Source: Candidatus Hydrogenedentota bacterium
Lineage (GTDB): Bacteria; Hydrogenedentota; Hydrogenedentia; Hydrogenedentales; SLHB01
DNA length: 64,000 nucleotides
NCBI GenBank assembly: GCA_963745075.1
Contig: CAVUWV010000036.1
Span: forward strand, 333,813 to 397,812
Direction of reading: 5' to 3'
Shown: positions 16,843 to 64,000 of the stretch, piece after piece
Position numbering within the stretch: the stretch's first letter is position 1
Layout of the letters: each line of letters opens with the position of its first letter
Position numbers and translations under genes: made by a program
Notes under the pieces: model-generated
Seen by the model: the letters and a program-made list of their open reading frames with translations, nothing else
Told to the model about the DNA's origin: nothing
Database searches by the model: none

Positions 16843-16845
16843 CTT

Positions 16846-32348: not shown

Positions 32349-32353
32349 TTATT

Positions 32354-35749: not shown

Positions 35750-35758
35750 CAGGAATGG

Positions 35759-40981: not shown

Positions 40982-40986
40982 CTATT

Positions 40987-42990: not shown

Positions 42991-43200
42991 ATTATTCAAT
43001 TGTTTACTCAGTAGTAAATGAATTGTTTATTTAGTTGTTTGAGGGATTGAAGTGGTTTGAAGTGGTTTGAAAAAGATGCTGTAGGTTTATAGTTGATCAG
43101 CTTTCACAAAGGATGTAATTTGTATAACCTCTATAACTTATATAGCCTGTATAATCTCTACAATATTGTATCGCTTTTCTATTTTTAGTAAATTTGAAAT

Positions 43201-43410: not shown

Positions 43411-43814
43411 AATACTTGATTGACACAAATATTTGGCTTGAGAGATTATTAGATCAGGACAAATCAGATATTGTTTCTCAATTTCTTGATACTGTTCCAT
43501 TAAACCAAATATTTTTAAGCGATTTTACCCTACATTCTATTGGAGTAATTCTGGCAAAATTCAATAAACTTGACATACTACATAAATTTATAAATGATTT
43601 ATTTTTCAATGGATTAATTGAGCAAATATTTCTTGATCCACATGATTTTGCTGATATTATTTCAAACATTGATAAATATAAGCTTGACTTTGATGATGCT
43701 TATCAATTAACTTTATCACAAAAATATGACTTGACAATCATAACATTTGACAAAGAATTTAATGCAAAAGGAATAAATAAAAAAACACCTGAGGATATAC
43801 TGAAAAAGTTATAA
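43395..43814 (+). CDS. VapC/PIN-domain toxin
   Basis: YLIDTNIWLE, LDFDDAYQ, IITFD; start codon uncertain (TTG). Confidence 0.85.
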   Translation: METKVKYLIDTNIWLERLLDQDKSDIVSQFLDTVPLNQIFLSDFTLHSIGVILAKFNKLDILHKFINDLFFNGLIEQIFLDPHDFADIISNIDKYKLDFDDAYQLTLSQKYDLTIITFDKEFNAKGINKKTPEDILKKL

Positions 43815-43979
43815 TTACCCCATCCTGCCTTATCTTTCTGGACTTATGAGTCTTTTCCTTTTAATAATTGAATGCTGCCTGTCGCGAGTCTCCATACTCG
43901 TAACTTCCGTTCTTATGAAAATTGAATTAACAAACCTTTAATAATCTGACAGAAAAAGAATACTTATTTTTCAACTGAT

Positions 43980-45365: not shown

Positions 45366-45817
45366 TGGTTCGGTAGTAATCCGATTGCTATCGGATCAGT
45401 TGATTATTCGGTTGTTTATTCGATAGTAATTCAATTGTCCATTCAGTAGTACTCTGTCGTTGATTCGATGGTTGGAAGGTAGTTCGAAATAGTTCCAAAT
45501 TGTTCCAGGAGGTTCAAAATGGGCGCTTCGGGATGAATATGGCGGGCGGGCTCCCTTTCAGGGGATTAAGGGGCAGCGCGGGGAAAATTCGGTTGTTTAC
45601 TCCCCTTCCTGCCGCAAGGCTCAAGCCTTGTGGCCTTTATCTCGAGCGTATTTGTAATGCGTTCATCCCATTGTTAAAGGTTTAGATCTGGAGGAGTTTA
45701 AACATGAGCTGAAAGCTCTAAAATAGTTTAAGATTTGAAAGGGTTTGAAATGCCATAACATTAACAGAAAATAAGTAAATTCAGAACTAACTAATACAAT
45801 TACAAAAACCAAACACT

Positions 45818-47813: not shown

Positions 47814-47814
47814 C

Positions 47815-48172
47815 AACTCTTGCTTTGGGAATGAGTGAGGGTCTGGTGTAGGCAAGGATCACGAGAAATATTAGTAACAAGGTGACAATCCTTGCCTTTG
47901 GCAGGAGCGAGGGCCTGGTGAAGGCAAGGATCACGAACGGGTTGTGGCCTGGCCATGCGGGAGTGAGTAACTTAAGTAACAGGGTGACAGAAGAGCTTTG
48001 TGTTAAAAGTATAAAGTAGATAAGTAACCCTGAAACTATTTGAAACAACTTAATAAACAACCGAATCCTTGCCTTTGGAATGTTTCACGCAAAGGCCGCT
48101 AAAGATTTCGCAAAGGCCGCAAAGCGCTAATTCTTAGCGTGCTTCGTGGTTCTTTGCTGACTTTGCGTGGAA
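47815..48172. repeat. Mosaic repeat island (reverse orientation)
   Basis: 85-bp composite at 47887-47971, a second hairpin, 8- and 10-bp repeats, and a CACGCAAAG..CTTTGCGTG inverted element at 48086-48169. Confidence 0.75.
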
Positions 48173-48215
48173 ATATTAAAGATTTTCGGACAACATTGTA
48201 GCTTTGATTTTTTGT

Positions 48216-50111: not shown

Positions 50112-50403
50112 GATCAGGTATATTAGTTAGTTTCGTTTTAATCTTTCAGAAGATGATATATTGACATCCTTGTACTAAATAATTCCAGATGCTTGTGTCT
50201 ACAAGCGTTCAGACTAATTTTTTACTCCCCTTCTATTGCGTTCTGTTGACTAAACAATCAAATATATAAAAAAAATCCTGTTGGACAATATCAATGCTGC
50301 ATATCCATACATAAAAAATTGTCTGACAAGCAAGCTCCTATTCAGTTTACTCAGTTTTTATAACTATTTAAAAACCCCGGAGACACAAATAGTCATTCAA
50401 TTC

Positions 50404-50917
50404 TATTCAAAGCCCATTTAAAGTCATTCAGTGTATAATTCATTTCATTCAGTATATAATTTATTATGTTCAGTATACAATTCATGCCGTTCAACTTAGG
50501 ATTCATTTCATTCAGCGTATAATTCATTAAATTCAAACGTGAATTCAGCTCTATCGACAAACATTTTATGTTATGCATTTAATAATTTACCACATTCAAT
50601 GTTTAATTAATTCTATTCATCATAAGATTCATTTGATACATTGTTTGTTTCATGGCATACATTCTATAATTAAATTAATTCAGTATCCACTTCAATTTAT
50701 TCAGCACCTATTTAGTTTTGTTCAGCCTATAATTAAATCTATTCAGTACATAATTAATTCTGTACAGGAAATGATTTACCTTCTTCATAGCACTATCAGA
50801 CGTGTTCAAAGGATAATTAGTTTTGTACAATACTTAATTAATTCTGTTCAAAGTAAGATTTGATTGGTTCAACCTAAAATTAACTCTCTGCAATGGGCTT
50901 TTCGTGCAATTCAATGG
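50404..50917. repeat. Degenerate 21-bp tandem array, 24 full units with no indels
   Basis: Manual alignment; consensus nATTCAnnnnnnAATTnAnnn. Confidence 0.85.
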
Positions 50918-50965
50918 AGGGAGTATTGCTGATCTCGTTTCTTACCTGGCCTATTAATAATATAA

Positions 50966-51224
50966 TATGACTATCGGGAATCATGTATAAAGCTAATATC
51001 TATTTAAAATATTGCCGGAAAAAGAACGCTTACGCTGCCCCCTCCCCCCCCTGAAGGCCTGCCTGCCGCACGCAGTACAGGCAGGGGGGCTCACACACGG
51101 TTTACCAATTTCAAATTTAGTATAAATATGTGCGCTGGCTCCCCTTCAGGGGATACAGGGGCTGAGCGAAAGCATTGTAAAATCTGAATCATTTTAAATT
51201 TATTAATCATTCCCGATAGTCATA
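50966..51224. mobile_element. MITE copy 2 with a nested 28-bp hairpin
   Basis: Same TIRs as copy 1; 8-bp flanking duplication TAATATAA. Confidence 0.85.
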
Positions 51225-51598
51225 TAATATAAAATAGACAGATTAATATATACACGAATTCGTTATTATATTCCTCCCAGTGTATATTATACTGATTAAA
51301 AAATGCTTTTTGCTATTGATTTTAAAGAAAATACCTCTTATTTTTGTTAGAACTAAATGGGATAAACCAGAAAAATATCAAAATATTACTAAAGGGAGTT
51401 ATATGAAGAACGCTAATAAAACCGGGAAGGAAAATGAATTTTTAGATACAACAGAAGAGGATAGTTTCCCAATAAAAACAAATATTGATAAATTATATTA
51501 AAACGTATATAAAACCCGAATATTAATAAACTCTTATACTGTCCGGAAGATCTTCCCCACAAAAATTAATATGTACCAATTTTAAAAAACCAGATGTA

Positions 51599-52240
51599 AT
51601 GAATGATTCCCAGAATAAGCATTTGAGGATGTTTGACAGCGTGCAAGCTGTATTGAACAACCATGAAGAAAATTGGAATATCATACCGATTATGGTAAAA
51701 TTGAAGAAACAGTTTGATGAGCTGATTCAACAGATTGAAAAGCTCAGTGAAGAGGCGAATCCGGGCACAAGTAAAATTACAACCGGAAAAAAAGTCCTGC
51801 GTAAAGTTCTGGTTATTAAAGCAACCGGACTTTCAGGAATACTTCAATCATTTGCTTCAATGAAAAAGGATGCCGCTCTCTTGCAGCGGGTGACATTTAC
51901 TAAGTCAGATCTGAACCGGGCCAAAGAAAAAGAAGTTGCCGCAATGGTCAGACCACTATTATCTGTTGCACGCCAGCACCTTGATAATCTGAGTGATTAT
52001 GGGATAAACGAAGAAATACTAACAGAGGTGGAAACCAGCGTTAATAATTTTGAAGAAGTTATAGGAGCGCCCCGAGAAGTAAAAAACAGGGCCTTTTCAA
52101 AAACAGCAGCAATAAAAGACCTGTTTTTTCAGACCAATGAATTGCTCAGAAATCATTTCGACAAGCTGATGATCCGCTTTAAGGAAATTGCCCCTGTGTT
52201 CTATGACGAATATATACGGGCACGTACAATTGTTGATTAA
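51599..52240 (+). CDS. Hypothetical all-helical protein
   Basis: 213-aa ORF ending FYDEYIRARTIVD; amphipathic helices; no function recognised. Confidence 0.75.
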   Translation: MNDSQNKHLRMFDSVQAVLNNHEENWNIIPIMVKLKKQFDELIQQIEKLSEEANPGTSKITTGKKVLRKVLVIKATGLSGILQSFASMKKDAALLQRVTFTKSDLNRAKEKEVAAMVRPLLSVARQHLDNLSDYGINEEILTEVETSVNNFEEVIGAPREVKNRAFSKTAAIKDLFFQTNELLRNHFDKLMIRFKEIAPVFYDEYIRARTIVD

Positions 52241-52435
52241 GTTGCCGATGCCACTGCAGCCCGTATTATGAACCACAATCCGGAAAAAATAAGACATCTG
52301 GCAATTGGCTATGATATGGGATTGGGTGAAATCCATGAAGAAAACATGAAGCTGCCGGGGGAAAATTTGAATAACCTGCGGATTAAAAGCGGACGCTTGC
52401 TCATTTGAGATATGAACTAATAGCTACTAATAAAA

Positions 52436-52825
52436 CCACAAGCGAGACGCTTGCAGCAGGTGAGGCGGTTTGTTATCGGTTTGAAAGGTAACAAAGTAAC
52501 AGAGGAGCTTCACGTTTCATCCGGATCAGCACGATCGCCACGAAGTGGCAGCTCAATTCAGCCCCAGGCAACGCCTGGGGATAGAGTAACCACATACACA
52601 TACGCCCTGAAAGGGCAGGTAATAATTTAAGCTGCCCTTTCAGGGCGCAATTGTTTTTTTTGCATTAATAAACCCAGGGCGTTGCCACTGGGCTGAATTA
52701 AGTTGCCCTTTCAGGGCGTTGATGCGGTTGTAATTATTGGGTTATTGCAACCGCAAACCAGCGATTATCCTTTGTCAGAAGGGCCACAAGCGAGACGATC
52801 CGATAGCTATCGGATGCGGTAGTTG
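52436..52825. repeat. REP-like island with GCCCTGAAAGGGC / GCCCTTTCAGGGC hairpins
   Basis: Three GCCCT(GAA/TTC)AGGGC units and two CCCAGG..CTGGG hairpins in inverted arrangement, bracketed by CACAAGCGAGACG units. Confidence 0.7.
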
Positions 52826-52856
52826 GGGCACTTTCACCAAAGTTGTTCAGTCAGCC

Positions 52857-55760
52857 CTACCTGGCAATGGTAAATTTTCTGGTAAGTTCTCCTGCACGGA
52901 GAAAATAGATACCCGGCTGGCCAATCTGGCTAACAGGAACTGTAAATTCATCAGCAGCCACCTTGCTTTGAAAAACCACAGATCCCAGGACATTGTAAAT
53001 GGTTATCCGGTAATTTTTCTTATTAAAACGGATATGGACTGCTTCAGTAGCCGGATCAGGGGAGATAAGAACATGGCCATTAATGGCAGTAGCGCCAATC
53101 CCTGTATAGGGTGATACGGTAAGCTCCTGAGTAACATTGGGAGCAGCGTTATACTGATCGTCTCCTGGCTGATGAGCGGTAATGGTAGCATTACCTTCTC
53201 CTTCAACGCTTATCATGTTATTCAATATTTTAGCCACTGTAGTATCTGAACTGGTGAAGGAAACCTGCAACCCAGAGCTGGCAGTTGCAACGGGGGAAAA
53301 ATCGGGGTCTCCAATAGTTTTATCAGGTAAGGGGAAAAAAGTAATAGTCTGGTTTGCCTTTGTAACGGTAAGATTCTGGCTGACAGGATCCGCAGCATTA
53401 TAGATATTATTACCACTCTGAGAAGCAGTTATAGTGGCTGTTCCAACGCCCTCAATCTGAATTTTGTTATTATAAACAGATGCAACCTCAGTATCTGAAC
53501 TGGAATAGGAAACAGCAAGTCCTGAACTGGCTTCGGCTGCCGGTACAAAAGCAGCATCAAGAATTGTTTTATCCTGCAATGATGGAAAAGTAATGGTTTG
53601 ATCAGCTTTCAGCACATTCATTGTGCGTTTAACCCATTCGGCAGCATTGTAATTTGCATTCCCCTGTTGGGTAGCAGTAATGGTAGTAGAACCGGTGCTT
53701 TTAAGCTGTACCTGACCATCCCGGGTGATGGTGGCTACACTCAGGTTGGAGCTGTATAATTGAACAGGTAATTCAGAACTGGCACTTGCAGGAATAGTAA
53801 TCGGTTCCGGATCATAAACAACATCACTGATAGAATCCATTGTAATAACCTGATCTGCTTTGGCAACAACAAAGGTATCAATCACCGGTTCAGCCGGTTT
53901 GTATACAGTATCCCCGTCCTGATAAGCAATAATGCTGCAGGTGCCGGCTCCAATGACCTTTACTGTATCACCATTCACTTTTGCCACACCGGGGTTCATA
54001 CTGGCAAAGCGCACCGGTAACCCCGAAGTAGCCGATGCTGTAATTACAAAACTGGTATCTTTCAATGCCATGTCAGGAATACCATCAAATTGCACAGATT
54101 GGGCAAGCAGGCTGGTATCCTGTTCAACCAACAGATTAATTACCGAATAACCCGGCATAGTAAGCATAATATCACCCTGTATGGTATCGCCATAAGGCAT
54201 CATAGTGGCATAATCTGCCGGTCCGCCAATTGACAGGTCGCCAGTCTTGCCATTTACATATACCTTAGGTGAAAAATCCCCATTGTCAGTTCCGCCGGTT
54301 AATAAATAGTAATAATAATGACTGCCGGGCTTAAAATCTTTCATTTTCACTGATACTACCTGGGACGACGAGCCTTTATTTATCAACACGACACCACTTT
54401 GCCCGGAAGAGAAATCAGAGGCAAAACTCACCACATCAGTACTTCCGGAAACGGAGGAGTACACCATTCGGTCACCAAAATATTTCTGAAAATAGTACAT
54501 ATAAAAAAATGGTGCTCTCGGAGTGTATCTTGGTATTCCGGGTTCCCCGTCAGCAAGCAAGCCGTGGTTGTCACCATTGTTCCAGCCATTTACCAAATCC
54601 CACCTGCTGCCCTGACCATATTGTTCTTTAATAAGCTCACCCAATACAAGGGATGCATGCATTCCATTTATATAAGAAACACCCTGACCCGAACCGGTAG
54701 CAAAAATATTCCACTCGGTAAGTGCCATGGGAAGCGGATCTTTGCCCGCAGCTTTCATACCATTGTCTATATAAGTTTTGATATCAGCTGAAGCAGTATA
54801 CGAATTCAGGATAGTAGAAATACCTGAGTTTTGATCATAAGGTGTATGATAACTGTGCACTATAATGAAATCAGCCATGTCTCCCACCTGTTTCATCATG
54901 CCTGCGTTCCAGTTCTGCTGCACTGCATCCCAGGTAACAGGCTGATCCATGGCTACCACGCCAATTTTTATATCATTACCCACCTCTTTGGCAGCCTTAC
55001 GCATCTCTTCAATAAACACGCGACAGTGTTTGCCATACAAGTCGCCTGAAATAGTTTTGGGCTGCCCGTCCTTATTAAGCGACTGGTCGATGGTATAACC
55101 TGTTTCCCAGTTCCCGAAATTCTCGTTTCCGATTTCCCAGTAACGGGTGCGGCCATTATCATAACGCACCCAGTCGGCTGCATATTTGGCCGCCGTCAGT
55201 ACCGGATCCTCACTGGTGCTGTATCGCGCATATGCATAATTAACAGTAATCATTCCGGTTGAGTTGGTTTTTTTCAGCAGATCGTAATAAGCATCCAGCG
55301 GCATGGTCCAGCTGTCTTTGTTGGCACCATAAAAATTGTCGCTGTAAGTAAAATCCGGAGGCAAATCACCCGGACAGGTAGCTTTGCTGGTGGCGTTCCA
55401 GAAATAATCATTGGACAGGTTCCCGCCAGGCCATCTGATTATATGCGGATCCAGTTCTGAGAGATCTTTCACCACCTGGTCATACTGGTTCAGCTTACCT
55501 CCCCATACACCAGCATTCTGGCCATACACATATTTGCTTACTTTGGACAGTACCGAATCAGCATCTACTGTAACGGTAACCGTTGCAGGTTGTGTAACCG
55601 GTTCAACCGTATCAAAAGCTGTTACTTCAATGGTTTTCGGTACCCAGTTGTCATTAAAAAAGCCTGGATGACTGCTTTGTGCTTGTACGATAGGTGTGAC
55701 ACAAAGTGTTGTGCATAAAATCAGGATGATGCTTTTTGTTTTAAGTAGAATTGTTTTCAT
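52857..55760 (-). CDS. Secreted clan GH-A (GH51/GH44-like) hydrolase with four Ig-like repeats and a T9SS C-terminal domain
   Basis: RWPGGN, YWEIGNE, LTEWN; repeated Q-T-I-T-F...A-S-S-G-L-x-V...G-x-A-T-I-T-A-x-Q-x-G units; C-terminal PDPA...IYNVLG...PGIYF. Confidence 0.75.
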   Translation of the reverse strand: MKTILLKTKSIILILCTTLCVTPIVQAQSSHPGFFNDNWVPKTIEVTAFDTVEPVTQPATVTVTVDADSVLSKVSKYVYGQNAGVWGGKLNQYDQVVKDLSELDPHIIRWPGGNLSNDYFWNATSKATCPGDLPPDFTYSDNFYGANKDSWTMPLDAYYDLLKKTNSTGMITVNYAYARYSTSEDPVLTAAKYAADWVRYDNGRTRYWEIGNENFGNWETGYTIDQSLNKDGQPKTISGDLYGKHCRVFIEEMRKAAKEVGNDIKIGVVAMDQPVTWDAVQQNWNAGMMKQVGDMADFIIVHSYHTPYDQNSGISTILNSYTASADIKTYIDNGMKAAGKDPLPMALTEWNIFATGSGQGVSYINGMHASLVLGELIKEQYGQGSRWDLVNGWNNGDNHGLLADGEPGIPRYTPRAPFFYMYYFQKYFGDRMVYSSVSGSTDVVSFASDFSSGQSGVVLINKGSSSQVVSVKMKDFKPGSHYYYYLLTGGTDNGDFSPKVYVNGKTGDLSIGGPADYATMMPYGDTIQGDIMLTMPGYSVINLLVEQDTSLLAQSVQFDGIPDMALKDTSFVITASATSGLPVRFASMNPGVAKVNGDTVKVIGAGTCSIIAYQDGDTVYKPAEPVIDTFVVAKADQVITMDSISDVVYDPEPITIPASASSELPVQLYSSNLSVATITRDGQVQLKSTGSTTITATQQGNANYNAAEWVKRTMNVLKADQTITFPSLQDKTILDAAFVPAAEASSGLAVSYSSSDTEVASVYNNKIQIEGVGTATITASQSGNNIYNAADPVSQNLTVTKANQTITFFPLPDKTIGDPDFSPVATASSGLQVSFTSSDTTVAKILNNMISVEGEGNATITAHQPGDDQYNAAPNVTQELTVSPYTGIGATAINGHVLISPDPATEAVHIRFNKKNYRITIYNVLGSVVFQSKVAADEFTVPVSQIGQPGIYFLRAGELTRKFTIAR

Positions 55761-55924
55761 ATTGGTTAGTTAGTATATAACATCGGGGTTGCCTTCAAAG
55801 TTAACGAAAAATTGCAGCTGAATGTTACCTGCATACATTATAATGAAATTCCGGAATCTTAATAATAATATCGATTGACAGAAAACTAACCGGATTATCT
55901 TCAAGAGGATTAAAACAGAAAAAC

Positions 55925-58900
55925 TTAGCGGATAATTAGTTTAACAGTTTCTGCACCGGCATTATTCACGGCTTGCACGACATAGATTCCTGGTGGAAAG
56001 TCAAGCACAAGTTCAGCATTACTGACCTTCTTCTGAAAAGTTTTCTTAAGCAGCTCCCTGCCATGGGTGTCATAGATTTTTATAGCATAAAAAGGAAAAT
56101 TCGATGAAATAGCCACATTTTTTCCTGCAGGATTCGGGAAAAGATATAAAGTATTTTTTCCCAGAGACATATCTTTTACGGCTGTATACTCAATTGTATT
56201 CTCTATGTTATAGTCACTAAACGGCTGAAGCTTCCCATTGTGAATACTCATCACAGATTCGCCGGTATACGAAACATTTATTGTATCACCGTATTCAATT
56301 GCAGGAGTAAAAACAAGCCTAAGTGTATCTCCGGCAACATCAACAGATTCTATAGTAACGGGAACACTGTCCAGGGTAATTTCAAAATCGTTCATTGCTC
56401 CCTGATCAATCTTTAATCTTCTGTCAAACACCAGATCAATAAATCTGTATTCGTTCCCATCACTTTCTATTACTGCTTCTTTTATCTGAGGCGGATATCC
56501 TGCTGTGGTATTCACAATCTGCCTGCCAGTAAATTTTTCCAATGCGCCACCATTAGCAGCTTCCAGCAGGGTACCTGAATAGGACAATGTAACTGTATCC
56601 TCAAAATAAATCCGGTGTTCGGGCATTAGTATCAGAACTGCAGAATCACCCTCCAGTAGATTGGCATCTGCAACGTTCAATTCTTCATTGTCATTAATCC
56701 AAATTGAAAAATCATTAGTATAATCTGATGGATTATTCATTTTTTTATTCAGCGAAACCCAGACAGTATCCCCTTCATTTCTGGTTTCTATTGATTTAAT
56801 AACAGGTGGAGCCCCAGGAAGCAGATTGTCAACATACCTGTTACGGAATGGATACATTGTAAGACTGTCGGCAGTCACAATAGTGCCCGGAACATAGGAG
56901 ACTGTAATTTTTTCAGTATTGAGTACCGGTTTAGCCAATGAAACAATTAACAAAGAAGAATCGTTGGGAGCCAGGTCAATATTGTTCACGTGTATTTCCG
57001 AGGTATCATTGACTTTTACACTTAAACCTGCAGGCAATGAAGGTTTGAGAACTGAACCTGAGATTTGTAGTTCAAGCTTGTTGGTGTCTGTAAGTGCAGC
57101 TGAAACAAATTCAGGAGGAACCTGAGAAGTAAATTTAATCCATTTAAGAGCGAATAATCTTTCATTTTCAGCCCCCTTAAATCTAAGATAAACATCATGT
57201 CTGCCACTAACATATTTTACCGGGAAGGAAAAGGTTTTGAAAGAATTCCAGTCTCCTGTAGGCGTTACAGGACATTCAGCAATTTGTCGACCATTGATGG
57301 AATCCAGCCAAACTTCAACTGTTCCGCCATTACCTCCGCAGGAAGCCGTTAACTCTATTGAGTGCGGAGCTTTAAGATATTCCCTGTTCCCGAATTCTAC
57401 ACCTGCATATAGTGCCCAGTCATTGTTTTGTATATCATCCAGCTGATAGATACCATCTTGCTTATTTGCACGAACTGTTCCGTATTGATTTGCCGGGCAT
57501 TCAGCCAGGATCGGTGAATAAGCATCGCGATAAATGTAATAATCAAAATAAGCAGTACTTCCCGATACAAAAAGTCCCTGACGGGTTCCTGTAAACGATG
57601 AAAAATCGGAATAGGAGTCAATAGCTGAAATATCAAAACTGTTACCTACCTTAATCCATTCATTGCCATCAACACTGTAGTACCCACTAATACTGTGATT
57701 CACCCTGAACATCCTGAGCCAAACTGTATCACCTGCTGTATTGGGTGTCTGGTAAACAGTGCTGTTATAGCTGAAAGAAATTATTTGCTGATTGTTTTCA
57801 TCAACCGTGCTGCAAAGTTTTACCATGCTTTTTTCATCGCCCCTTATAATTCTAAGGCCTGCCTGATCGTTGGAAGAAGCTGGATTAAAATCCACTTTTG
57901 TTACAAGTGCATAATTATGTTCGCCATCATTTTTGATAACTGTATTCGGTTTGTTCCGGTTCTTTGCTGTGAGACGCAACCAGCCCGGCCTGTCGGTTAG
58001 TGAATACGAAGCGTCGGGAGTATATCCCAGGAATGACCATTCGGGATTGAGTTGTACCGTGTCGAAAAAATCAGATTTCGGCACCATCCAGGGTATTCCG
58101 CTATCCGGTAGTTTAGGGGCTGAAAAAGCCTTATTCACAGGATAATCAGCAGTTGGTTTTCCATTACTGTTGTAACGCACCTGATTGAGCAGTCCCTGTC
58201 TGCCCTGCCCTTTCCATTCACCTTTGGCATAGAGCGGATGAATTACCCAGCTGGTACTGTCATCAAGCAATACAGCAGCAGAAGCATGATTTGGGCTTGT
58301 AAACAAAGATCCAGGCTTTAACGGATCGTATTCATTAAAAAAATCGCCGAGCAATTGCCAGTCATCCTGACTGGCAGTAAGTGTATCACTTCGCATCACT
58401 TTTTGTCCTCCGCTAAGATCCCTGGCAAAAGAATAATAATAATATCCCTTGTATTTCCACATTACAGGTCCTTCTGCCCAGCTGTATGGATAGTCAGGAG
58501 AAGGGTTGAGCCAGCTCAAGTTATATACTACTCCGGTTGGCTGACCGTCGTCTCCAAGTTCAACAATTCCATTATTGGGCTGACCGTTTTTAACAACCAG
58601 ATACCATTTGCCATTATCATCAATAAAAACCGAATTGTCATATCCCAGACCATAAGGCAGACTGGACGGATTGTTTACCTTAACAGGATTACTCCAGGGA
58701 CCCCGGGGATTATCAGCTGAAACAAAATACATGGTATTGGCACGTGAAAAGTAATCCCAGTATTTACCATTGTAATAGACCATTTGTCCTCCCCAGCAGC
58801 CACCACCAGGGCGATCATCAAAACTACTCCAGGAAGCTTTTACCGGCTGGGCAATGGCTTCCCAATGAACCAGGTCGGTTGAATGATAGATGACTGGTGT

Positions 58901-59086
58901 TACGTTAAAAGAGGATCCTGTAGTATAAAAATCGTTTCCTATACGAGTAAGTGTAGCATCCGGATGGTCGCCCGGAATAACAGGATTCATGTAGGTTGAA
59001 AAAGAAGGGGATTGTGCCTGAAGAACAGCCGAAAGTGCTATTGAAAGGGATAGCATCCAAAAAATTCTTAATACATTAAATTTCAT
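55925..59086 (-). CDS. Secreted GH43 hydrolase with CBM6-like module, surface repeats and T9SS C-terminal domain
   Basis: NPVIPGDHPD, YHSTDLVHW, WAEGP; TGDWNSF..GRHDVYLRF (CBM6-like); FPNPA..IYDTHG..PGIYVV. Confidence 0.85.
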   Translation of the reverse strand: MKFNVLRIFWMLSLSIALSAVLQAQSPSFSTYMNPVIPGDHPDATLTRIGNDFYTTGSSFNVTPVIYHSTDLVHWEAIAQPVKASWSSFDDRPGGGCWGGQMVYYNGKYWDYFSRANTMYFVSADNPRGPWSNPVKVNNPSSLPYGLGYDNSVFIDDNGKWYLVVKNGQPNNGIVELGDDGQPTGVVYNLSWLNPSPDYPYSWAEGPVMWKYKGYYYYSFARDLSGGQKVMRSDTLTASQDDWQLLGDFFNEYDPLKPGSLFTSPNHASAAVLLDDSTSWVIHPLYAKGEWKGQGRQGLLNQVRYNSNGKPTADYPVNKAFSAPKLPDSGIPWMVPKSDFFDTVQLNPEWSFLGYTPDASYSLTDRPGWLRLTAKNRNKPNTVIKNDGEHNYALVTKVDFNPASSNDQAGLRIIRGDEKSMVKLCSTVDENNQQIISFSYNSTVYQTPNTAGDTVWLRMFRVNHSISGYYSVDGNEWIKVGNSFDISAIDSYSDFSSFTGTRQGLFVSGSTAYFDYYIYRDAYSPILAECPANQYGTVRANKQDGIYQLDDIQNNDWALYAGVEFGNREYLKAPHSIELTASCGGNGGTVEVWLDSINGRQIAECPVTPTGDWNSFKTFSFPVKYVSGRHDVYLRFKGAENERLFALKWIKFTSQVPPEFVSAALTDTNKLELQISGSVLKPSLPAGLSVKVNDTSEIHVNNIDLAPNDSSLLIVSLAKPVLNTEKITVSYVPGTIVTADSLTMYPFRNRYVDNLLPGAPPVIKSIETRNEGDTVWVSLNKKMNNPSDYTNDFSIWINDNEELNVADANLLEGDSAVLILMPEHRIYFEDTVTLSYSGTLLEAANGGALEKFTGRQIVNTTAGYPPQIKEAVIESDGNEYRFIDLVFDRRLKIDQGAMNDFEITLDSVPVTIESVDVAGDTLRLVFTPAIEYGDTINVSYTGESVMSIHNGKLQPFSDYNIENTIEYTAVKDMSLGKNTLYLFPNPAGKNVAISSNFPFYAIKIYDTHGRELLKKTFQKKVSNAELVLDFPPGIYVVQAVNNAGAETVKLIIR

Positions 59087-59154
59087 AGTGAGTTATGTAG
59101 CAGATTAGATAACAAAGATAATGAAAATGTTTGCAAAGGATAAGAAATGGGTCA

Positions 59155-60234
59155 TCACTGTCCCTTATAATATTTTCTTCTAAACCAGAAAGCAACATTA
59201 ACAAGGGCAATCATTACCGGGACTTCAACCAGCGGTCCGATAACGGCGGCAAAGGCTTCCCCTGAATTCATTCCGAAGACAGCTATAGATACTGCGATGG
59301 CCAGCTCGAAATTGTTGCTGGCGGCGGTAAATGATAAGGTAGTGGATTGTGCATAACCAGCCCCCATCTTTTTACTCATAAAAAAAGAAAGTACAAACAT
59401 CACAACAAAGTACACCAGAAGCGGGATGGCAATCAGCACGACGTCACCAGGTATCTCAATTATATATTCACCTTTCAGGGAAAACATTACAATGATCGTA
59501 AACAGAAGAGCGATTAGCGTAACTGGACTAATCTTTGGAACAAATTTACATTGATACCAGGATTTACCTTTTGCCCGGATGAGGATGAAGCGACTAAGGA
59601 AACCAGCGATGAACGGAATCCCCAGGTAAATGAAAACGGTTTCCGCAATCTGCCCAATGGTAATGTTTTCCACAGCAGTATTGGTTGGTATGCCAAACCA
59701 GCCAGGCAATACAGCAATGAAGAACCATGCATATACAGAGAAAAACAACACCTGGAAAACAGAATTAAAAGCTACCAGTCCGGCGGCATACTGCGCATCT
59801 CCCTTTGCCAGGTCGTTCCAAACGATGACCATGGCAATACAACGTGCCAGACCGATCATAATGATACCGTACATATAAGGCAGATTGGCATTGTTTTCAC
59901 CAGGAAACAGCTTAAAAAACAGGATATCCAGTGCAAACATCAGTACCGGTCCGATGATCCAGTTCTGCACCAGTGACAGGGAGAGGATTTTGTAATTTCT
60001 GAACACATCCCCCAGTTCCTCATATTTCACTTTAGCGAGTGGCGGATACATCATCAGGATGAGGCCGATGGCAATCGGCAGATTGGTAGTGCTTTCCGGT
60101 GATGATTTGAGAGAATCCCAGAAGGCCGCAATACCCGGAAAAAAATATCCTGTCAGGACACCAATGGCCATGGCGAGGAATATCCATACAGTTAAATACC
60201 TGTCTAAAAATTTAAGTCTGGGTTTTGAAGGCAT
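59155..60234 (-). CDS. acr3: ACR3 arsenite efflux transporter
   Basis: [53 protein letters not shown]. Confidence 0.95.
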
Positions 60235-60291
60235 GGTTAGATTAATTTTAATTTTGAGTTACCCTTATCTGCTTTATTTGACCTGAGAAAT

Positions 60292-60595
60292 TTAACAACA
60301 AGCGGTTTTGCCATCTCCGGAACAATCACAAGAGGGTTCTGAATTGGAGAGTATTCCATTTATAACAGCAGCTGCACAACCTACACCTGATTTTACATAA
60401 ATGGCATCATAACGGCAATTTTCAGCGCAAGCACCACATTCCATACAATCATTGACATCGATGATGCATGCTTTTTTCTTTAATCATTTCAAACACTCCA
60501 TGTGGACAAACTATGGCACACATTCCGCAACCTGTGCAGCGTTCAGTATTCAGTTTTAAGCTGACAACGTTTTTCAGATATTGTAAATTCTTCAT
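60292..60595 (-). CDS. hgcB: HgcB 2[4Fe-4S] ferredoxin; +1 frameshift in the A6 run (60472-60477)
   Basis: Manual translation with one A removed: MKNLQYLKNVVSLKLNTERCTGCGMCAIVCPHGVFEMIKEKACIIDVNDCMECGACAENCRYDAIYVKSGVGCAAAVINGILSNSEPSCDCSGDGKTACC. Has the CMECGAC motif, GVGCA and terminal CC; starts 1 nt after the hgcA stop. Confidence 0.9.
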
Positions 60596-60596
60596 A

Positions 60597-61622
60597 TTAA
60601 ATGAGTTTCATGTAGATATAAACAGACAGACCTGCCAACACAAATGCGATTTGGAAAGGGATGGCCCATTTCATCTCTTTTCTGACACCTGATAACGAGG
60701 TATAAGTAGATGAACCGGTAAAATTCATTGTCAGCCAGGAGGCCAGACTGATGTTAATAAGTCCCATGGCAACAGTTTCCAAAAGTGAGGTTCCCAACAG
60801 AGAATTTAGAGCCAGTGTAACAGCTACAGCCCAGACAGCGCCCTTTAATGCAAATGCTCTGAGGGGGATCCAGGGTAAGAATACGGGAGCCAGCACAATA
60901 CCAGCAAGGTAAGCAGCCAACACGTTTAGTACAGGGATATATCCGGTTTTCAGCATTTTAAAAAAAATGAAGCCATCCTTGTCAAGTCCCGAAATAAAAA
61001 ACAAGATACCTATTACAAGTAGCAGCTTTAAAATATTGCTGGCAAAATCAACCGGGATCACTTTAATTCTGTCAGAAAATAAAAAATTCACTTTTCGCAT
61101 TTCAGGTACCGCCTTGTAACCAGCATCAATAAATGATTTTATGTCACCCGCTCTGATTGGTCCGTATTTTACACGAAAACCACATAATTCTTTAACTTTA
61201 TGTGCAGCAATACCCGGAGCACCCAATTGGGGGACGATTACAGTCCGATGGTTGACAATATTTTCCAATCCCGTATTTTTAATACTTCTGACCAGATTAT
61301 CTGTACCAAAGGTTCCTTTTCCTGCAGCACACCAAACATTTATCCCATTGGTATCCAGGACGAGTATCCAGGCGCTGATACCCCCGAGATTTTTCCTGAG
61401 CACATCAAAAGATAATTTGTAATTTGAAGTAACAAGTACATCGGCCTCTGCATCAGGATTTCCTATTCGATAGATGCCGGGGTCAATTTTATACCTGTCG
61501 CGTTGAATGCCCCACCGCACTTTAAAAGCACCCCAATAATCAGATGCATTTAAGGTTGCACTTATTGCCGGAACAGATGTTATAACCGGTTTCAGAGACT
61601 GCAGATCGACTTCAAAACTCAT
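60597..61622 (-). CDS. hgcA: HgcA mercury-methylation corrinoid protein
   Basis: Cap helix GINVWCAAGKGTFG, VLVTSNYKLSFD, PQLGAPG, YGPIRA, C-terminal TM helices, NFTGSSTYTSLSGVRKEM. Confidence 0.96.
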   Translation of the reverse strand: MSFEVDLQSLKPVITSVPAISATLNASDYWGAFKVRWGIQRDRYKIDPGIYRIGNPDAEADVLVTSNYKLSFDVLRKNLGGISAWILVLDTNGINVWCAAGKGTFGTDNLVRSIKNTGLENIVNHRTVIVPQLGAPGIAAHKVKELCGFRVKYGPIRAGDIKSFIDAGYKAVPEMRKVNFLFSDRIKVIPVDFASNILKLLLVIGILFFISGLDKDGFIFFKMLKTGYIPVLNVLAAYLAGIVLAPVFLPWIPLRAFALKGAVWAVAVTLALNSLLGTSLLETVAMGLINISLASWLTMNFTGSSTYTSLSGVRKEMKWAIPFQIAFVLAGLSVYIYMKLI

Positions 61623-61661
61623 CAGAATATTTATTGTTTTTAATCATTTCAGTTTGATAAT

Positions 61662-62090
61662 TCAATTCCGTTCCCTCTTTATTTCAGCTTTGTACAATTC
61701 AAAAAATCTGCTTCTTATCTCATCTCTTACCCTCCGAAATTCAGACATCACAAACTCATCAGTACCAGTGGCATTTGAAGGATCCTCAAAACCGATGTGC
61801 AGTCTGGTTTTTACCTTTCCCAGAAAAGCAGGGCAGGTTTCATTGGCATGGTCGCAGACAGTGATTACATAATCCCATTCGTCACTGAGATATTGATCGA
61901 CCCTGTGAGGAGTATGGTTACTGATGTCGATACCAGCCTCCAGCATGACCTGCACAGCTTTCGGATTTACCTGAGCAGCCGGTTCAGTACCGGCTGACCG
62001 GACGGTAATACTGTTATCAAATGATTGCAGAAAACCATGGGCCATTTGGCTTCGGCAACTGTTGCCTGTACAGAGGATTAGTATTTTCAT
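61662..62090 (-). CDS. arsC: Arsenate reductase (LMW-PTP, thioredoxin-type)
   Basis: LCTGNSCRSQMA P-loop, VCD..A.ETCP resolving cysteines, FEDP. Confidence 0.92.
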   Translation of the reverse strand: MKILILCTGNSCRSQMAHGFLQSFDNSITVRSAGTEPAAQVNPKAVQVMLEAGIDISNHTPHRVDQYLSDEWDYVITVCDHANETCPAFLGKVKTRLHIGFEDPSNATGTDEFVMSEFRRVRDEIRSRFFELYKAEIKRERN

Positions 62091-62097
62091 TTAAATT

Positions 62098-62433
62098 CTA
62101 TTTTTTACAGTAATCTTTTGAAGTATCAATCTGGTCGATAAAAGTTTGAAATACCTGTTTTAGTTCGTTGAGTCGGGCAGGGTTCAAACAGTAATTGGTT
62201 CTGGATCCTTCAGTGGTACCCACGATCAGTCCGGCAGCCTTTAGCTCTTTCAGATGTTGATTTACAGTAGTACGACTGAGGGGTAACTCTTCAGAAATAT
62301 CTCCTGTTATACAAACTTTGGTATCCGAAAGGTATTTCAGAATTGCCAGACGAGCCGGATGAGCCAGTGCTTTGCAGAAAGAGGCACATACCTGCAGCTC
62401 ATTTTGAAATAATTGCGTTTTTGCATACACCAT
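62098..62433 (-). CDS. arsR: ArsR/SmtB-family repressor
   Basis: KALAHPARLAIL..LPLSRTTVNQHLKELK..GL..NYC; five Cys; ATG at 62433. Confidence 0.9.
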   Translation of the reverse strand: MVYAKTQLFQNELQVCASFCKALAHPARLAILKYLSDTKVCITGDISEELPLSRTTVNQHLKELKAAGLIVGTTEGSRTNYCLNPARLNELKQVFQTFIDQIDTSKDYCKK

Positions 62434-62448
62434 AGCAAACAAAATTTA

Positions 62449-62493
62449 TGACGCAAATATACGTCAATTTTTGAAACATAACGTATAATTACG
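62449..62493 (-). promoter_or_regulatory. Putative ArsR operator(s) overlapping the -7 promoter element
   Basis: Inverted repeat TGACG-CAAATATA-CGTCA (62449-62466) encloses minus-strand TATATTTG; second imperfect site CGTA-TAAT-TACG at 62482-62493. Confidence 0.7.
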
Positions 62494-62502
62494 ACGCTTT
62501 TT

Positions 62503-62533
62503 TAAAAAAATGGTCCTGCCATAAGGCAAGACC
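62503..62533 (-). terminator. Intrinsic terminator after the FmdE-like gene
   Basis: GGTCCTGCC-ATAA-GGCAAGACC hairpin followed by a T-run on the minus strand. Confidence 0.7.
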
Positions 62534-62560
62534 ACAATTTATAATTCTTAGCACTAATAA

Positions 62561-63163
62561 TTATTTAGCAGCGCAATCGATACATACTTTTTTATCATCT
62601 TTAATTCTGCCGTATTCAGTAACGGTCATTTCACCGCATTCTTCGCAGACGAAACTGTTGAAGCTATGTGGATGCTCTTTGAGGTCATAATCAAAAACCT
62701 CTGAGATGTTTATCAGTTTTTCCAAAGGGGCTCCCATCACATTGACAACCAGCGGATCTACAACTGTATCAGGCACTTTACTGGCGGGAATACCTTTTTC
62801 CCGGTAATCTTTGAAAAATGAGGTTTGTTTGTTTGCCAGCATGGCTTCGGCTTTTGGAGTTACTCTTACAGCCTTTTTCGTTGCTTTGTCAATAACAGTG
62901 ACTGCCCATTTCCCTTTATGGGTCTTTTTAAGATTCCCCTTGCCGAAGGTGGTTCCCAGCATAACCTGTAATCCGTCTGCATAACAAGTGGCACAATGGT
63001 CATCACCCAGGTCGGCAATGGCAATTACCTGGCCGTCTTTTGCACGGTCAATGCCCAGTTTGTTAAGTGCTGCTGCGCCCACTCTTAAGCCCATTGGCAT
63101 TGCCGGACATTTGTGTCCGTGAAATTTCTGCCCGAATTCGAGCCATTCTTTTGGATCTACCAT
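62561..63163 (-). CDS. FmdE/FwdE-family protein with C-terminal Zn finger
   Basis: FHGHKCP, C..DGLQ...GTTFGKGNL, GKWA, CEECGE...CIDC. Confidence 0.85.
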   Translation of the reverse strand: MVDPKEWLEFGQKFHGHKCPAMPMGLRVGAAALNKLGIDRAKDGQVIAIADLGDDHCATCYADGLQVMLGTTFGKGNLKKTHKGKWAVTVIDKATKKAVRVTPKAEAMLANKQTSFFKDYREKGIPASKVPDTVVDPLVVNVMGAPLEKLINISEVFDYDLKEHPHSFNSFVCEECGEMTVTEYGRIKDDKKVCIDCAAK

Positions 63164-63252
63164 GATTTTTTGTTTTAAAAGTTCATAAATATATATATTG
63201 TCTGTCCCTGAAAATTTTTCAGGATATCTATTTTAAATTCATTTCTGTAGCA

Positions 63253-64000
63253 TCAGTTAAAAAAGAGCTGAAACTGAATGGTGGCCATATAATTCTCCGG
63301 CGCTCCGTCAATTATTTGTACGGCATTGTCGAACATGATCTTGCGTTTATTTTTGTCCATGAGATAATTATATCCAAGGTGGACGATTTGTGAATCAATT
63401 GCATTCTTACTGAGACCGGCATATTCATTCCATGAAGCCACCAACTGGTTTTTCTTCAGATCCAGTGTTGCCAGCAGATAATATCCTGCTGCTGATTCGC
63501 CATTTAGATTTGCCTGCAGGTATTCTGCCTGTATGTTAAATTTCCGGTAATGATACTGAGCAAATATATTGTACCGGAATTCATTGCCAGAAAATGTAAC
63601 TGAATCAGGCAATAAAGAAGTCAACTGCAACTGATCAGCTTTACGGAACATTACTGAATAACCCGTGTGCAGGTGGTTATTCAATAAATTTAAAGCCGTT
63701 TGGTTTGTTACCATTACTCCATTCTGATTAAAACGGTATTTTTTTATTCCGTCACCATTGAAGATCCCAACCCAGGTTTGGAAATGTTTTTTACGGCCAA
63801 AAAAGGTTCCTTCGATCCCGATATCCCGTCCGCCGAGACCGGCTGCAGGAACAAGTGACTGAATAACAGGTGATCGTTCCGTCAGTGGAATTATCGCGTC
63901 AGACTGAAATCGCTGGAGGCTGAACCGCGGTGTAAACTGTCCGAAGCTGATATTAAAATTATCCTTTCGGTAGAACGCTTCCACATCCTGCAGAAAGAAT
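63253..64000 (-). CDS. Outer-membrane porin-like beta-barrel (OprO/P-like), 5' end outside the window
   Basis: FGQF..RFS, GRDIG, GIFNGDG, QAEY, C-terminal QFQLFF. Confidence 0.65.
   Translation of the reverse strand, partial: FFLQDVEAFYRKDNFNISFGQFTPRFSLQRFQSDAIIPLTERSPVIQSLVPAAGLGGRDIGIEGTFFGRKKHFQTWVGIFNGDGIKKYRFNQNGVMVTNQTALNLLNNHLHTGYSVMFRKADQLQLTSLLPDSVTFSGNEFRYNIFAQYHYRKFNIQAEYLQANLNGESAAGYYLLATLDLKKNQLVASWNEYAGLSKNAIDSQIVHLGYNYLMDKNKRKIMFDNAVQIIDGAPENYMATIQFQLFFN

Follow-up and report, generated by a model that had tools for sequence, protein, structure and literature searches.

Organization of the locus

The window, that is, the whole 64,000-nucleotide stretch of DNA analysed here, carries five genes on the minus strand in the order arsR-arsC-hgcA-hgcB-acr3, separated by gaps of 7, 39, 1 and 57 nt. 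The genes and their associated elements are listed below in the direction of transcription.

62510..62535, minus strand: terminator-like hairpin (11 pairs) followed by T7, a consensus match only, 3′ of the upstream FmdE-family gene
62480..62495, no strand assigned: putative ArsR operator, distal copy, a 16-bp palindrome
62450..62465, no strand assigned: putative ArsR operator, proximal copy, a palindrome overlapping the promoter-like element at 62461-62454
62098..62433, minus strand: arsR, 111 aa from the ATG at 62433, with an alternative TTG start at 62442; Cys41, Cys82 and Cys109; Asn80
61662..62090, minus strand: arsC, thioredoxin-type (LMWPc fold) arsenate reductase-like protein of 142 aa with Cys7, Cys79 and Cys86
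60597..61622, minus strand: hgcA, corrinoid protein of 341 aa; cap helix NVWCAAGK; four predicted transmembrane segments
60292..60595, minus strand: hgcB, 2x[4Fe-4S] ferredoxin with a Cys-rich tail ending in CC; one surplus base at about 60478-60485 (judged an assembly error); 100 aa in the sister genome G041
59155..60234, minus strand: acr3, arsenite efflux pump of 359 aa

The hairpin upstream of the operators probably delimits the ars unit on its 5′ side. A simple scan of the minus strand from arsR to acr3 returned no terminator-like site, bearing out the original prediction of five co-directional genes with these gaps and no internal terminator, and the same kind of scan found none after acr3, where a GH43 gene lies 68 nt downstream. 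The sequence TAnnTTTG at 62461-62454 is presumably a Bacteroidetes -7 promoter-like element, and a sigma-70 promoter scan gave 7 sites against 11.0 expected. Position 62493 falls inside the distal operator and is not a gene start. The synteny also holds elsewhere: the five-gene order recurs in 10 further named genomes and is identical in G041, where 9,402 bases align at 99.56% identity and hgcB is intact. The arsR-arsC, arsC-hgcA and hgcB-acr3 junctions are each spanned by short-read contigs. The cluster is a genuine arsenic-resistance operon of a Bacteroidales bacterium.

Source genome of the operon

The assembly that contains the window (G000) is a Hydrogenedentota genome of ~59% GC, and the GC content of its contig C36 drops to ~41% at position 304,944, where the following block begins.

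C36:304,944-397,812 (~93 kb), no strand assigned: Bacteroidales block covering the whole window (1..64000), with the junction outside the window

Judged by its sequence, this block was misjoined into the Hydrogenedentota contig. The join truncates a Bacteroidales gene from 1,609 to 732 aa and contains ~140 nt of low-complexity filler, while 77,424 aligned bases of the block match contig C31 of G041 at 98.5-99.7%, with the exception of one 919-base piece at 90%; the two differ by 40 indel events, one of which is counted twice. HgcA above the cut-off was found in 0/40 relatives of G000, and no integrase was noticed in the block on a look at the ORF starts. The cut gene, the filler, the match to G041 C31 and the lack of HgcA in the 40 relatives are the grounds on which horizontal transfer of the block into Hydrogenedentota is rejected. 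G041 is the true owner of the operon DNA. The family of G041 comprises only 2 genomes, so a family-level control failed. The original prediction of a Bacteroidota genome was right for the DNA, which is Bacteroidales, and overlooked that the contig is chimeric and the assembly Hydrogenedentota.

A chimeric contig, together with an hgcB that is frameshifted in the window, could suggest that faulty assembly created the cluster or that hgcB is a pseudogene. For the cluster this is refuted by the gene order in G041, the junction-spanning short-read contigs, the ~88 kb that separate the misjoin from the untouched operon and the recurrence in 10 other named genomes; the predicted check for a chimeric assembly was thus warranted for the contig, and the cluster itself was upheld. 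The explanation as a whole is scarcely credible, since G041 also has an intact hgcB and the short-read contigs lack the extra base.

HgcA and HgcB

HgcA scores 423.1 bits against NCBIfam NF040863 (cut-off 275) over model positions 1-323 of 325, and remains below the cut-offs of the HgcAB-like fusion model (193 against 285) and of CdhE (78.8 against 306). The cap helix NVWCAAGK is placed at residue 95 and fits N(V/I)WCA(A/G)GK, which we take to be the HgcA motif. Four hydrophobic 19-mers in a Kyte-Doolittle scan form the C-terminal transmembrane domain, so that the intact cap helix and membrane domain claimed originally are both present, and a stop codon precedes hgcB, leaving HgcA without a ferredoxin fusion. 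In a FastTree phylogeny of 114 rows, from which 2 of 7 outgroup loci without a match were omitted, HgcA falls in a Bacteroidota-only clade of 21 rows (support 99), apart from the AcsC-like outgroup. By profile and phylogeny, as the original prediction had proposed to check, the protein is thus assigned as a canonical HgcA that groups with HgcA rather than with AcsC/CdhE.

In the window hgcB measures 304 nt (60292-60595) and holds all its motifs, two CX2CX2CX3C and the C-terminal cysteines, split by one surplus base that places the two Fe-S motifs in different frames; the two halves reach 47.7 and 60 bits against the HgcB (NF040864) cut-off of 99. The G041 gene is 303 nt long, has the motifs in one frame and scores 116.1 bits, and in 5/5 short-read contigs over the site (from 3/4 short-read runs, 2 studies) one base is missing at 60478-60485. 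Because neither G041 nor these contigs have that base, it is judged an assembly error, and a pseudogene or a programmed frameshift is rejected. An HgcB with its CMECGAC motif and terminal CC had been predicted: the motifs are there, the open frame is not, and the frameshift had gone unnoticed. HgcB tails of Bacteroidota carry no extra cysteines compared with other HgcB (4 Cys in 40/42 Bacteroidota, mostly 3-6 in 58 others), and tail cysteines were dropped as a mark of arsenic specialisation. From family membership, HgcAB of the operon is very likely able to methylate Hg.

G000 owes its only hgcA to the misjoined Bacteroidales block. In a genome survey this Hydrogenedentota species would thus count, wrongly, among the mercury methylators, while hgcB of the same assembly would be missed on account of the indel error. 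G000 is a cautionary example for such surveys.

ArsR, its operator and the flanking arsenic genes

ArsR scores 64.6 bits against NF033788 (cut-off 55). Across 72 ArsRs, Cys41 is conserved in 67, Cys82 in 70 and Cys109 in 59, while cysteine occupies position 80 in just 3; the ArsR of the operon has Asn there. In the 90 nt upstream of arsR, the operator pattern is present at 24/37 arsM loci and 23/35 hgc loci (47/72 in total), compared with 1.1% of shuffles. Both the ArsR cysteine type and the palindromic putative operator are common to arsM operons and hgcAB operons. The best match of the arsC product is TIGR02691 (LMWPc/pI258-like) at 132.8 bits, under the equivalog cut-off of 174.3, with the catalytic-type Cys7, Cys79 and Cys86 present; its context supports the assignment as ArsC. 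Acr3 scores 437.3 bits against TIGR00832 (cut-off 282.8), and its gene is the sole acr3 match in G041.

The five genes are likely co-transcribed and induced by arsenic, because two ArsR-type palindromes precede arsR, the ArsR is of the arsM-operon type, G041 has a single acr3 match and arsenic induces hgcAB in Pseudodesulfovibrio mercurii ND132. The co-induction originally predicted is thus well supported, by inference rather than by measurement.

A slot shared with arsM

The order arsR-arsC-arsM-acr3 recurs in Bacteroidales. An arsC within 1.6 kb upstream and an acr3 within 1.6 kb downstream flank 17/40 arsM loci, 7/20 hgcA loci of the order sample and 11/18 named Bacteroidota hgcA loci. The window has no tblastn match to ArsM, and G041 has no MerB match and no MerA above the cut-off, in agreement with the predicted lack of arsM and mer genes; HgcAB is unrelated to the class I SAM methyltransferase fold of ArsM.

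Among genomes that are mostly incomplete MAGs and whose kin are not independent, canonical (over-cut-off) ArsM is found in 1/31 hgcA+ and 125/370 hgcA- genomes (Fisher p 1.6e-4), and a full re-scoring of the 31 left the former count as it was. Carriers of hgcA are enriched in acr3 (28/31 against 192/370), and within acr3+ genomes canonical arsM occurs in 1/28 hgcA+ against 104/192 hgcA- genomes (p 8e-8), a comparison devised after the pattern was seen. In a second set, made up of 17 more named Bacteroidota genomes with hgcA, three have canonical arsM (p 0.20 when compared with 125/370, p 0.005 when compared with 104/192). In Desulfobacterota there is no significant hgcA/arsM exclusion (17/76 vs 54/175, p 0.22), and the odds ratios of Bacteroidales and Desulfobacterota differ at p ~0.03. 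The effect is gone when any ArsM-like match (E<=1e-40) is counted (16/31 vs 147/370, p 0.25), and the 8 well-supported independent lineages alone give a depletion p of 0.19 (base 0.34) or 0.02 (base 0.54). One genome, G240, has hgcA and arsM together in one cluster. G041 itself encodes an ArsM-like protein of 213 aa, which retains three of the ArsM cysteines and lies in a methyltransferase-peptide-radical SAM cluster, outside ars operons.

A recA tree of 88 genomes, built with 60/126 arsM genomes and omitting G350 (short) as well as G076 and G204 (no match), requires 21 label changes against a shuffled mean of 24.7, at least 7-8 of them forced by well-supported branches. A quick Acr3 tree of 50 rows (L196 omitted) has 9 label changes, at least 4 forced, and in it the G041 Acr3 and an Acr3 from an arsM operon form a pair (support 92). 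The two operon types thus appear not to be confined to one clade. An independent-pairs test (7 opposite, 0 same) was circular, the hgcA- rows having been picked for carrying arsM, and is unused as evidence.

The rarity of hgcAB together with canonical arsM in Bacteroidales hints at HgcAB replacing ArsM, a pattern to which cassette swapping via shared flanks would look identical. In the latter case hgcAB, once inserted between arsC and acr3 in place of arsM, would have spread in Bacteroidales by flank recombination, with arsenic induction incidental and Hg methylation the sole relevant chemistry. Each swap would delete arsM, so that exclusion would arise without shared function, and the single acr3 copy of most genomes offers one slot only. 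The Acr3 labels interleave, whereas the G041 HgcA stays within its Bacteroidota-only clade, and most non-Bacteroidota hgcAB loci have neither arsC nor acr3 nearby, as such a spread would suggest; the lack of methylarsenic in ND132 points the same way. This history is nevertheless rather unlikely. hgcA is kept within ars runs through many rearranged layouts (19/20 and 16/18 loci), canonical arsM occurs in 0/14 hgcA+ genomes without acr3 within 5 kb (9 of them have acr3 on another contig and are possibly fragmented), and the upkeep of a pair costly in cobalamin and Fe-S clusters suggests selection.

HgcAB as a possible replacement for ArsM

The favoured reading, with a probability of roughly 0.4, is that an anaerobic Bacteroidales species has in this operon its main means of arsenic resistance and that HgcAB is the operon's methyl-transfer module instead of ArsM; a selected methyl-transfer role of HgcAB in arsenic handling is proposed equally tentatively. 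As a part of that role, plain methylation of As(III) to methylarsenite is unlikely. So too is the full replacement, in which Bacteroidales HgcAB would be a non-homologous, cobalamin-dependent ArsM, an anaerobic arsenite/methylarsenite methyltransferase repeatedly swapped with arsM in one slot, with Hg methylation as a side reaction.

Under the favoured reading, the anatomy suggests that ArsR would cover its own promoter by sitting on the two palindromes there and would be released once trivalent arsenic binds its cysteines, so that arsR, arsC, hgcA, hgcB and acr3 would be made together. From what is known of their families, ArsC would be the reductase that turns As(V) into As(III), and Acr3 the pump that exports As(III). 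By analogy with what is shown for ND132 HgcAB, HgcB would keep the HgcA cobalamin reduced, SAM would methylate the cobalamin and the methyl group would pass to thiol-bound Hg(II). The selected acceptor would be a thiol-bound arsenic species, the job of ArsM in sister operons, and methylmercury would be a by-product. HgcAB and ArsM are both SAM users (PMC11588087), and methylcobalamin with glutathione methylates As(III) non-enzymatically, according to a review (PMC6950371). Against a stand-in for ArsM, PMC12953829 reports hgcA MAGs in several phyla whose arsenic genes include arsM.

The available part of the ND132 preprint (bioRxiv 10.1101/2022.10.17.512643) describes an hgcAB deletion with raised sensitivity to As(V) and unchanged sensitivity to As(III), its Summary gives no significant loss of As resistance, and no mono- or dimethylarsenicals were detected in wild-type cultures. 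A role as ArsM stand-in is thus favoured by the same slot, the arsM depletion, the acr3 enrichment, the spread over several clades, the shared ArsR and operator, the lack of significant exclusion in Desulfobacterota and the ND132 As(V) sensitivity. It is opposed by the lack of methylarsenicals in ND132, by the co-occurrence in G240, by the 3/17 set, by the loose ArsM count, by the ArsM-like protein of G041 and by the HgcB tails. The predicted part of HgcAB in metalloid detoxification or As methylation accordingly gains from the slot and the canonical arsM depletion and loses from those ND132 cultures. The further expectation that arsenic would raise methylmercury output is not supported, since in the same portion of the preprint transcripts did not predict the methylation rate.

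The As(V) phenotype and the unidentified thioarsenical formed, both within that portion, would also suit another arsenic chemistry of HgcAB (low-potential reduction, thioarsenic handling or MAs(III) demethylation), in which exclusion would reflect antagonism with ArsM through a futile cycle or SAM competition. The ArsR here combines Cys41 and Cys82 with Asn80, and in Arsenicibacter the C80S mutation leaves ArsR responsive to MAs(III) alone (PMC11868830), the positions being matched by number and unaligned; arsP, arsE, arsF, arsG and arsN are frequent in these operons. However, arsM operons have the same ArsR type, Cys80 being rare throughout, and organoarsenical genes as well; the conserved Cys109 could serve as the third As(III) ligand, and corrinoid demethylation of MAs(III) is without precedent in the literature searched. 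Such a chemistry is improbable.

CCl4 reduction by heterologous HgcAB, reported in the accessible portion of bioRxiv 10.64898/2026.04.26.720869, would fit either that chemistry or a native job unrelated to arsenic, such as halomethane dehalogenation or the use of methylmercury as an antimicrobial, with ArsR as a general thiol/soft-metal sensor. For such a job, which the part available of bioRxiv 10.1101/2022.11.21.517362 also favours, the loss of arsM would be a matter of niche, since the toxicity of MAs(III) persists in anoxia (PMC11868830). Yet Desulfobacterota hgcA carriers, which are anaerobes too, retain arsM at 17/76, and the exact position between arsC and acr3 is left unexplained; an unrelated job is still more improbable.

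What the present analysis adds is a countable pattern (slot, regulator, operator and canonical arsM depletion in one order and not in Desulfobacterota), which turns a loose association of hgcAB with arsenic into the specific question of whether Bacteroidales HgcAB does the job of ArsM. If it does, the long-sought native HgcAB substrate would be named for at least one lineage, the places where mercury methylators persist would be shaped by arsenic, and arsenic selection would help to explain their patchy spread among the fermenting Bacteroidales of soil and sediment.

Comparison with known systems

The linkage of hgcAB to arsC/acr3 is already in print, also for Bacteroidales, so the arrangement that first seemed striking is known. 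In its available part, PMC7438021 (mSystems 2020, Fig. 6) presents selected examples, drawn from diverse methylators, in which acr3 and arsC lie beside hgcAB, with the same genes and linkage as here and with arsR and arsM also near hgcAB; the counts, the arsM-operon comparison and the exclusion test come from the present analysis. The portion seen of PMC10504345 (ISME J 2023) describes HCC_PROLIX_006, a Prolixibacteraceae (Bacteroidales) polysaccharide degrader with 248 glycoside hydrolases and hgcAB co-located with arsenic-cycling genes. This is in essence the arrangement originally noted here. It is a different organism, and the portion seen makes no mention of arsM being replaced. The combination of a shared arsC-acr3 slot, ArsR type and operator with arsM depletion in Bacteroidales was not found in the literature searched.

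In ND132, as described in the available part of bioRxiv 10.1101/2022.10.17.512643, ArsR2 lies upstream of hgcAB, as ArsR does here, and hgcAB transcription responds to arsenic, but the locus has no other ars gene and ArsR2 has a four-cysteine site (Cys47/49/86/88). In contrast, the present operon has an ordinary Bacteroidales ars-operon ArsR (Cys41/82/109), with hgcAB between arsC and acr3. Paludibacter jiangxiensis is among the Bacteroidetes named in the same part of the preprint, and some of these have arsC/arsB/arsM. A related tested operon is arsRMC of Arsenicibacter rosenii (PMC11868830). The Bacteroidales arsR-arsC-arsM-acr3 operon shares the backbone, the ArsR cysteine type, the palindromic operator and a SAM-using methyl-transfer gene in mid-operon; it differs in having the class I SAM methyltransferase ArsM, the only one of the two with proven As methylation, where the present operon has the unrelated corrinoid/ferredoxin pair.

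Identity of the operon genes

The five genes arsR-arsC-hgcA-hgcB-acr3 are co-directional on the minus strand, and re-measurement returned the originally reported spacings of 7, 39, 1 and 57 nt.

62433-62098, minus strand: arsR, passing the ArsR model, 64.6 bits (cut-off 55)
62090-61662, minus strand: arsC, thioredoxin-type reductase-like, 132.8 bits, under the equivalog cut-off of 174.3
61622-60597, minus strand: hgcA, NCBIfam NF040863, 423 bits (cut-off 275)
60595-60292, minus strand: hgcB, 304 nt, two Fe-S motifs out of frame with each other
60234-59155, minus strand: acr3, passing the Acr3 model, 437 bits (cut-off 283)

The HgcA assignment of the original prediction is upheld by HMM search, the protein passing NF040863 and neither the HgcAB-fusion nor the CdhE model, and by a 114-row tree that groups it with Bacteroidota sequences (clade of 21 rows, support 99) apart from AcsC-like proteins. 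The claimed absence of arsM also stands, with no ArsM match within the 64-kb window. The operon is real and of a known kind, although it is sited on a chimeric contig and its hgcB contains an indel error.

Origin of the operon and frameshift in hgcB

The predicted Bacteroidota origin applies to the operon DNA, which is Bacteroidales, but not to the assembly holding it (G000), which is Hydrogenedentota with a misjoined block. Near 305 kb the GC content of contig C36 (CAVUWV010000036.1) falls from about 60% to about 41%, with no recovery before the contig end, the other 35 contigs lying at 58-61% (34 contigs) or 52% (one); past the drop the tetranucleotide correlation changes from 0.96-0.98 to 0.28-0.43. 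The low-GC DNA starts at C36:304,944, directly after a poly-T/poly-A low-complexity tract, and is from there onward near-identical to contig C31 of a Bacteroidales sister genome (G041), to which the host side has no match. The join truncates a 1,609-aa gene that is complete in G041. Host-side ribosomal L11 shares a 90% cluster with a protein named Candidatus Hydrogenedentes/Hydrogenedentota (one of seven looked-up proteins yielded a name), HgcA exceeds its cut-off in 0/40 relatives of G000, and the hgcA of C36 is the only one in G000. Thus the compositional shifts, the G041 match, the cut gene and the relatives with no over-cut-off HgcA show that the contig is chimeric and that the operon on it comes from Bacteroidales. 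The junction (C36:304,800-304,944, outside the window) is filled with low-complexity sequence.

Chimeric assembly had been named as a danger to the prediction; C36 is chimeric, but some 88 kb separate the misjoin from the operon, and the gene junctions of the operon are reproduced in G041. Short-read contigs bridge the operon junctions, hgcA-hgcB with no more than 30 letters to one side, and an artefact is a very improbable explanation. The acr3 of the operon is the sole acr3 match in G041, so this is the working ars operon of that organism. The own side of G000 carries a canonical ArsM (C36:123,588-124,412) and a MerB match on contig C3; with the misjoined Bacteroidales hgcA, the assembly therefore gives the misleading impression of a Hydrogenedentota genome that combines hgcA, arsM and merB. 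Contig C22 of G000 (30,470 bp; 51.9% GC vs about 59% elsewhere) is possibly a second foreign contig or a mobile element. In a relative of the host, locus L088 (G017:C332:6556-7290) encodes an HgcA-like protein with NVWCAAG that scores 171.5 bits, too low for the cut-off of HgcA, and is probably a paralogue of the HgcAB-like kind.

Both Fe-S motifs predicted for HgcB are there, but not in one open frame, and the gene is missing from the ORF list. Over window positions 54599-64000 G041 is 99.56% identical, the one gap lying in hgcB, and its intact hgcB encodes 100 aa, over the HgcB cut-off. One base is missing at 60478-60485 in 5/5 short-read contigs covering the site, from three of four runs (at most 4 samples of 2 studies, depths <6, one run possibly the source sample). 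Judged from these sequences, the extra base is an assembly error. The Bacteroidales block shows 40 indel events relative to G041 across 77,424 aligned bases. Overlapping ORF pairs resembling split genes at window ~12458-13529, 27179-28262 and 45818-47813 coincide with indels at 13140, 27764 and 46251-46477, and are probably assembly errors.

In G041 the organoarsenical genes arsE-arsF-arsG (L101:10147-10862, L005:179-1299) precede hgcA by 5-6 kb, with no adjoining arsR or arsP seen. Immediately upstream of arsR (window 62561-64000; L005:1979-5062) lies a unit of TetR, TauE-like, phosphate-porin-like and FmdE/zinc-finger genes, in that order, which was not seen next to hgcA at any of the 79 further loci; its FmdE protein belongs to a 25-member cluster with Tenuifilum. 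At the start of G041:C31 (L101:273-2582), ~14 kb upstream of hgcA, are two ORFs that we take to resemble an IS21-type transposase and helper ATPase.

hgcAB and arsM share a slot

An even draw of 401 genomes from the order of G041, Bacteroidales, contained HgcA over cut-off in 31, ArsM (NF008823) over cut-off in 126 and an Acr3 match in 220. Canonical arsM occurs in 1/31 genomes with hgcA vs 125/370 without (p 1.6e-4), and among those with acr3 in 1/28 vs 104/192 (p 8e-8); ArsM scoring covered the top 6 candidates in each of the 370, and full re-scoring of all candidates in the 31 left the count unchanged. The depletion becomes borderline when the count is restricted to the 8 independent lineages that are well supported. 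The sole order-sample genome with both systems, G240, holds them in one cluster (L194, G240:C3:206,000-221,000), arsR-DGC-hgcA-hgcB followed by a second unit, arsR-arsC-arsC-arsM-acr3. Depletion is weaker in a second set, with canonical arsM in 3/17 named hgcA genomes (p 0.20 vs the overall rate, 0.005 vs the acr3-positive rate). In Desulfobacterota (251 genomes; one sub-cut-off match included in each list) arsM is found in 17/76 hgcA-positive vs 54/175 hgcA-negative genomes (p 0.22).

The comparison drew on 40 of the 126 arsM loci and, for hgcA, on 20 of 31, long contigs being preferred, plus 18 named Bacteroidota among 80 hgcA loci. Both an arsC within 1.6 kb upstream and an acr3 within 1.6 kb downstream are present in 17/40 arsM, 7/20 order-sample hgcA and 11/18 named hgcA loci. 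The arsM and hgcA labels interleave on a quick Acr3 tree, where 50 rows need 9 changes (at least 4 of them forced), and likewise on a recA tree (88 rows; 21 changes vs 24.7 shuffled, at least 7-8 forced); the pattern is therefore not that of a single clade without arsM through one loss.

The preferred reading, tentatively held at a probability of about 0.4, is that HgcAB is kept in the operon for arsenic handling in the place of ArsM. Methylcobalamin and glutathione can together methylate As(III) with no enzyme present, according to part of a review (PMC6950371). Accessory gene families are common to arsM and hgcA loci. In a somewhat less probable alternative, hgcAB is a passenger with no function in common with arsM; swapping of the two through shared flanks would leave the identical genomic pattern.

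The depletion vanishes when any ArsM-like match is counted (16/31 vs 147/370), because 15 of the 31 hgcA-positive genomes, G041 included, carry a ~215-aa ArsM-like protein, which keeps three ArsM cysteines. It is the only ArsM-like match in 15/31 hgcA-positive and 22/370 hgcA-negative genomes. No core ars gene lies within 1.5 kb of it in 15/15 genomes; a radical SAM gene stands 3' of it in 12/12 motif-oriented loci (3/15 not orientable), and a 32-38-aa cysteine peptide accompanies the two in 11/12 (examples are L198, G041:C23:24,906-28,436, L199-L201 and L294-L301). Thus the short protein belongs to another system, and it may still methylate arsenic.

An ArsG/DsbD-like gene is upstream of hgcA in 13/20 loci. 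Directly upstream of hgcA in several (L179, L187, L189, L191 and others; e.g. L187:5715-6706) are a DsbD_TM protein and a ~90-105-aa Cys-rich membrane-anchored protein with no Pfam match, the latter in 9/20 hgc runs vs 0/40 arsM loci. This module is possibly an hgcAB accessory.

Control of transcription

62535-62510: hairpin and T-run, putative terminator of the upstream FmdE-family gene
62480-62495: 16-bp palindrome, putative ArsR operator
62450-62465: 16-bp palindrome, putative ArsR operator

A scan for minus-strand terminator-like sites returned none between arsR and acr3 and none after acr3. The palindrome pattern, derived from the window locus itself, recurs upstream of arsR in 24/37 arsM and 23/35 hgc loci vs 1.1% of shuffles. 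Among 72 such ArsRs, Cys41 is kept in 67, Cys82 in 70 and Cys109 in 59; the nearest relatives of the operon's ArsR come mostly from arsM operons.

Proposed function and comparison with known systems

Trivalent arsenic would free ArsR from the two palindromes, and a single transcript would then supply ArsC, HgcAB and Acr3. The ars families act in As(V) reduction and As(III) export; here ArsC would reduce As(V) and Acr3 would export As(III). HgcAB would pass a methyl group from SAM via cobalamin to a thiol-bound soft ion. That transfer, with SAM as methyl donor, was shown for Hg in Pseudodesulfovibrio mercurii ND132 (PMC11588087), in a paper whose main text nowhere contains 'arsen'. Alternative native roles have been proposed (bioRxiv 10.64898/2026.04.26.720869; 10.1101/2022.11.21.517362, each in part), and one unrelated to arsenic is improbable.

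The available text of one preprint (bioRxiv 10.1101/2022.10.17.512643) reports that arsenic induces hgcAB in ND132, that hgcAB transcripts couple poorly to methylation rate and that a deletion strain is more sensitive to As(V), not to As(III). Some other arsenic chemistry of HgcAB is unlikely, if slightly less so than a role outside arsenic. Mono- and dimethylarsenicals were not found in the ND132 cultures, according to the same text; this result ranks with flank swapping as the most important against HgcAB standing in for ArsM. The arsM slot and the depletion make the native function of HgcAB directly testable, the pattern itself being no proof of the chemistry.

Published accounts, as far as their accessible parts go, describe acr3 and arsC flanking hgcAB with arsR and arsM nearby (PMC7438021), a Prolixibacteraceae polysaccharide degrader whose hgcAB lie together with arsenic genes (PMC10504345) and the same linkage elsewhere (PMC11984097, PMC10349881). 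With this linkage and the arsenic induction in print, the finding as originally predicted is known. Neither slot-sharing nor arsM exclusion was found in a literature search that misses most subscription papers; for hgcA MAGs from other groups, the arsenic genes listed include arsM (PMC12953829, in part). When positions are paired by number, not by alignment, the operon's ArsR has Asn80, in contrast to Arsenicibacter ArsR, in which, from the available text, As(III) is bound by Cys41/80/82 and Cys41/82 are enough for MAs(III) (PMC11868830).
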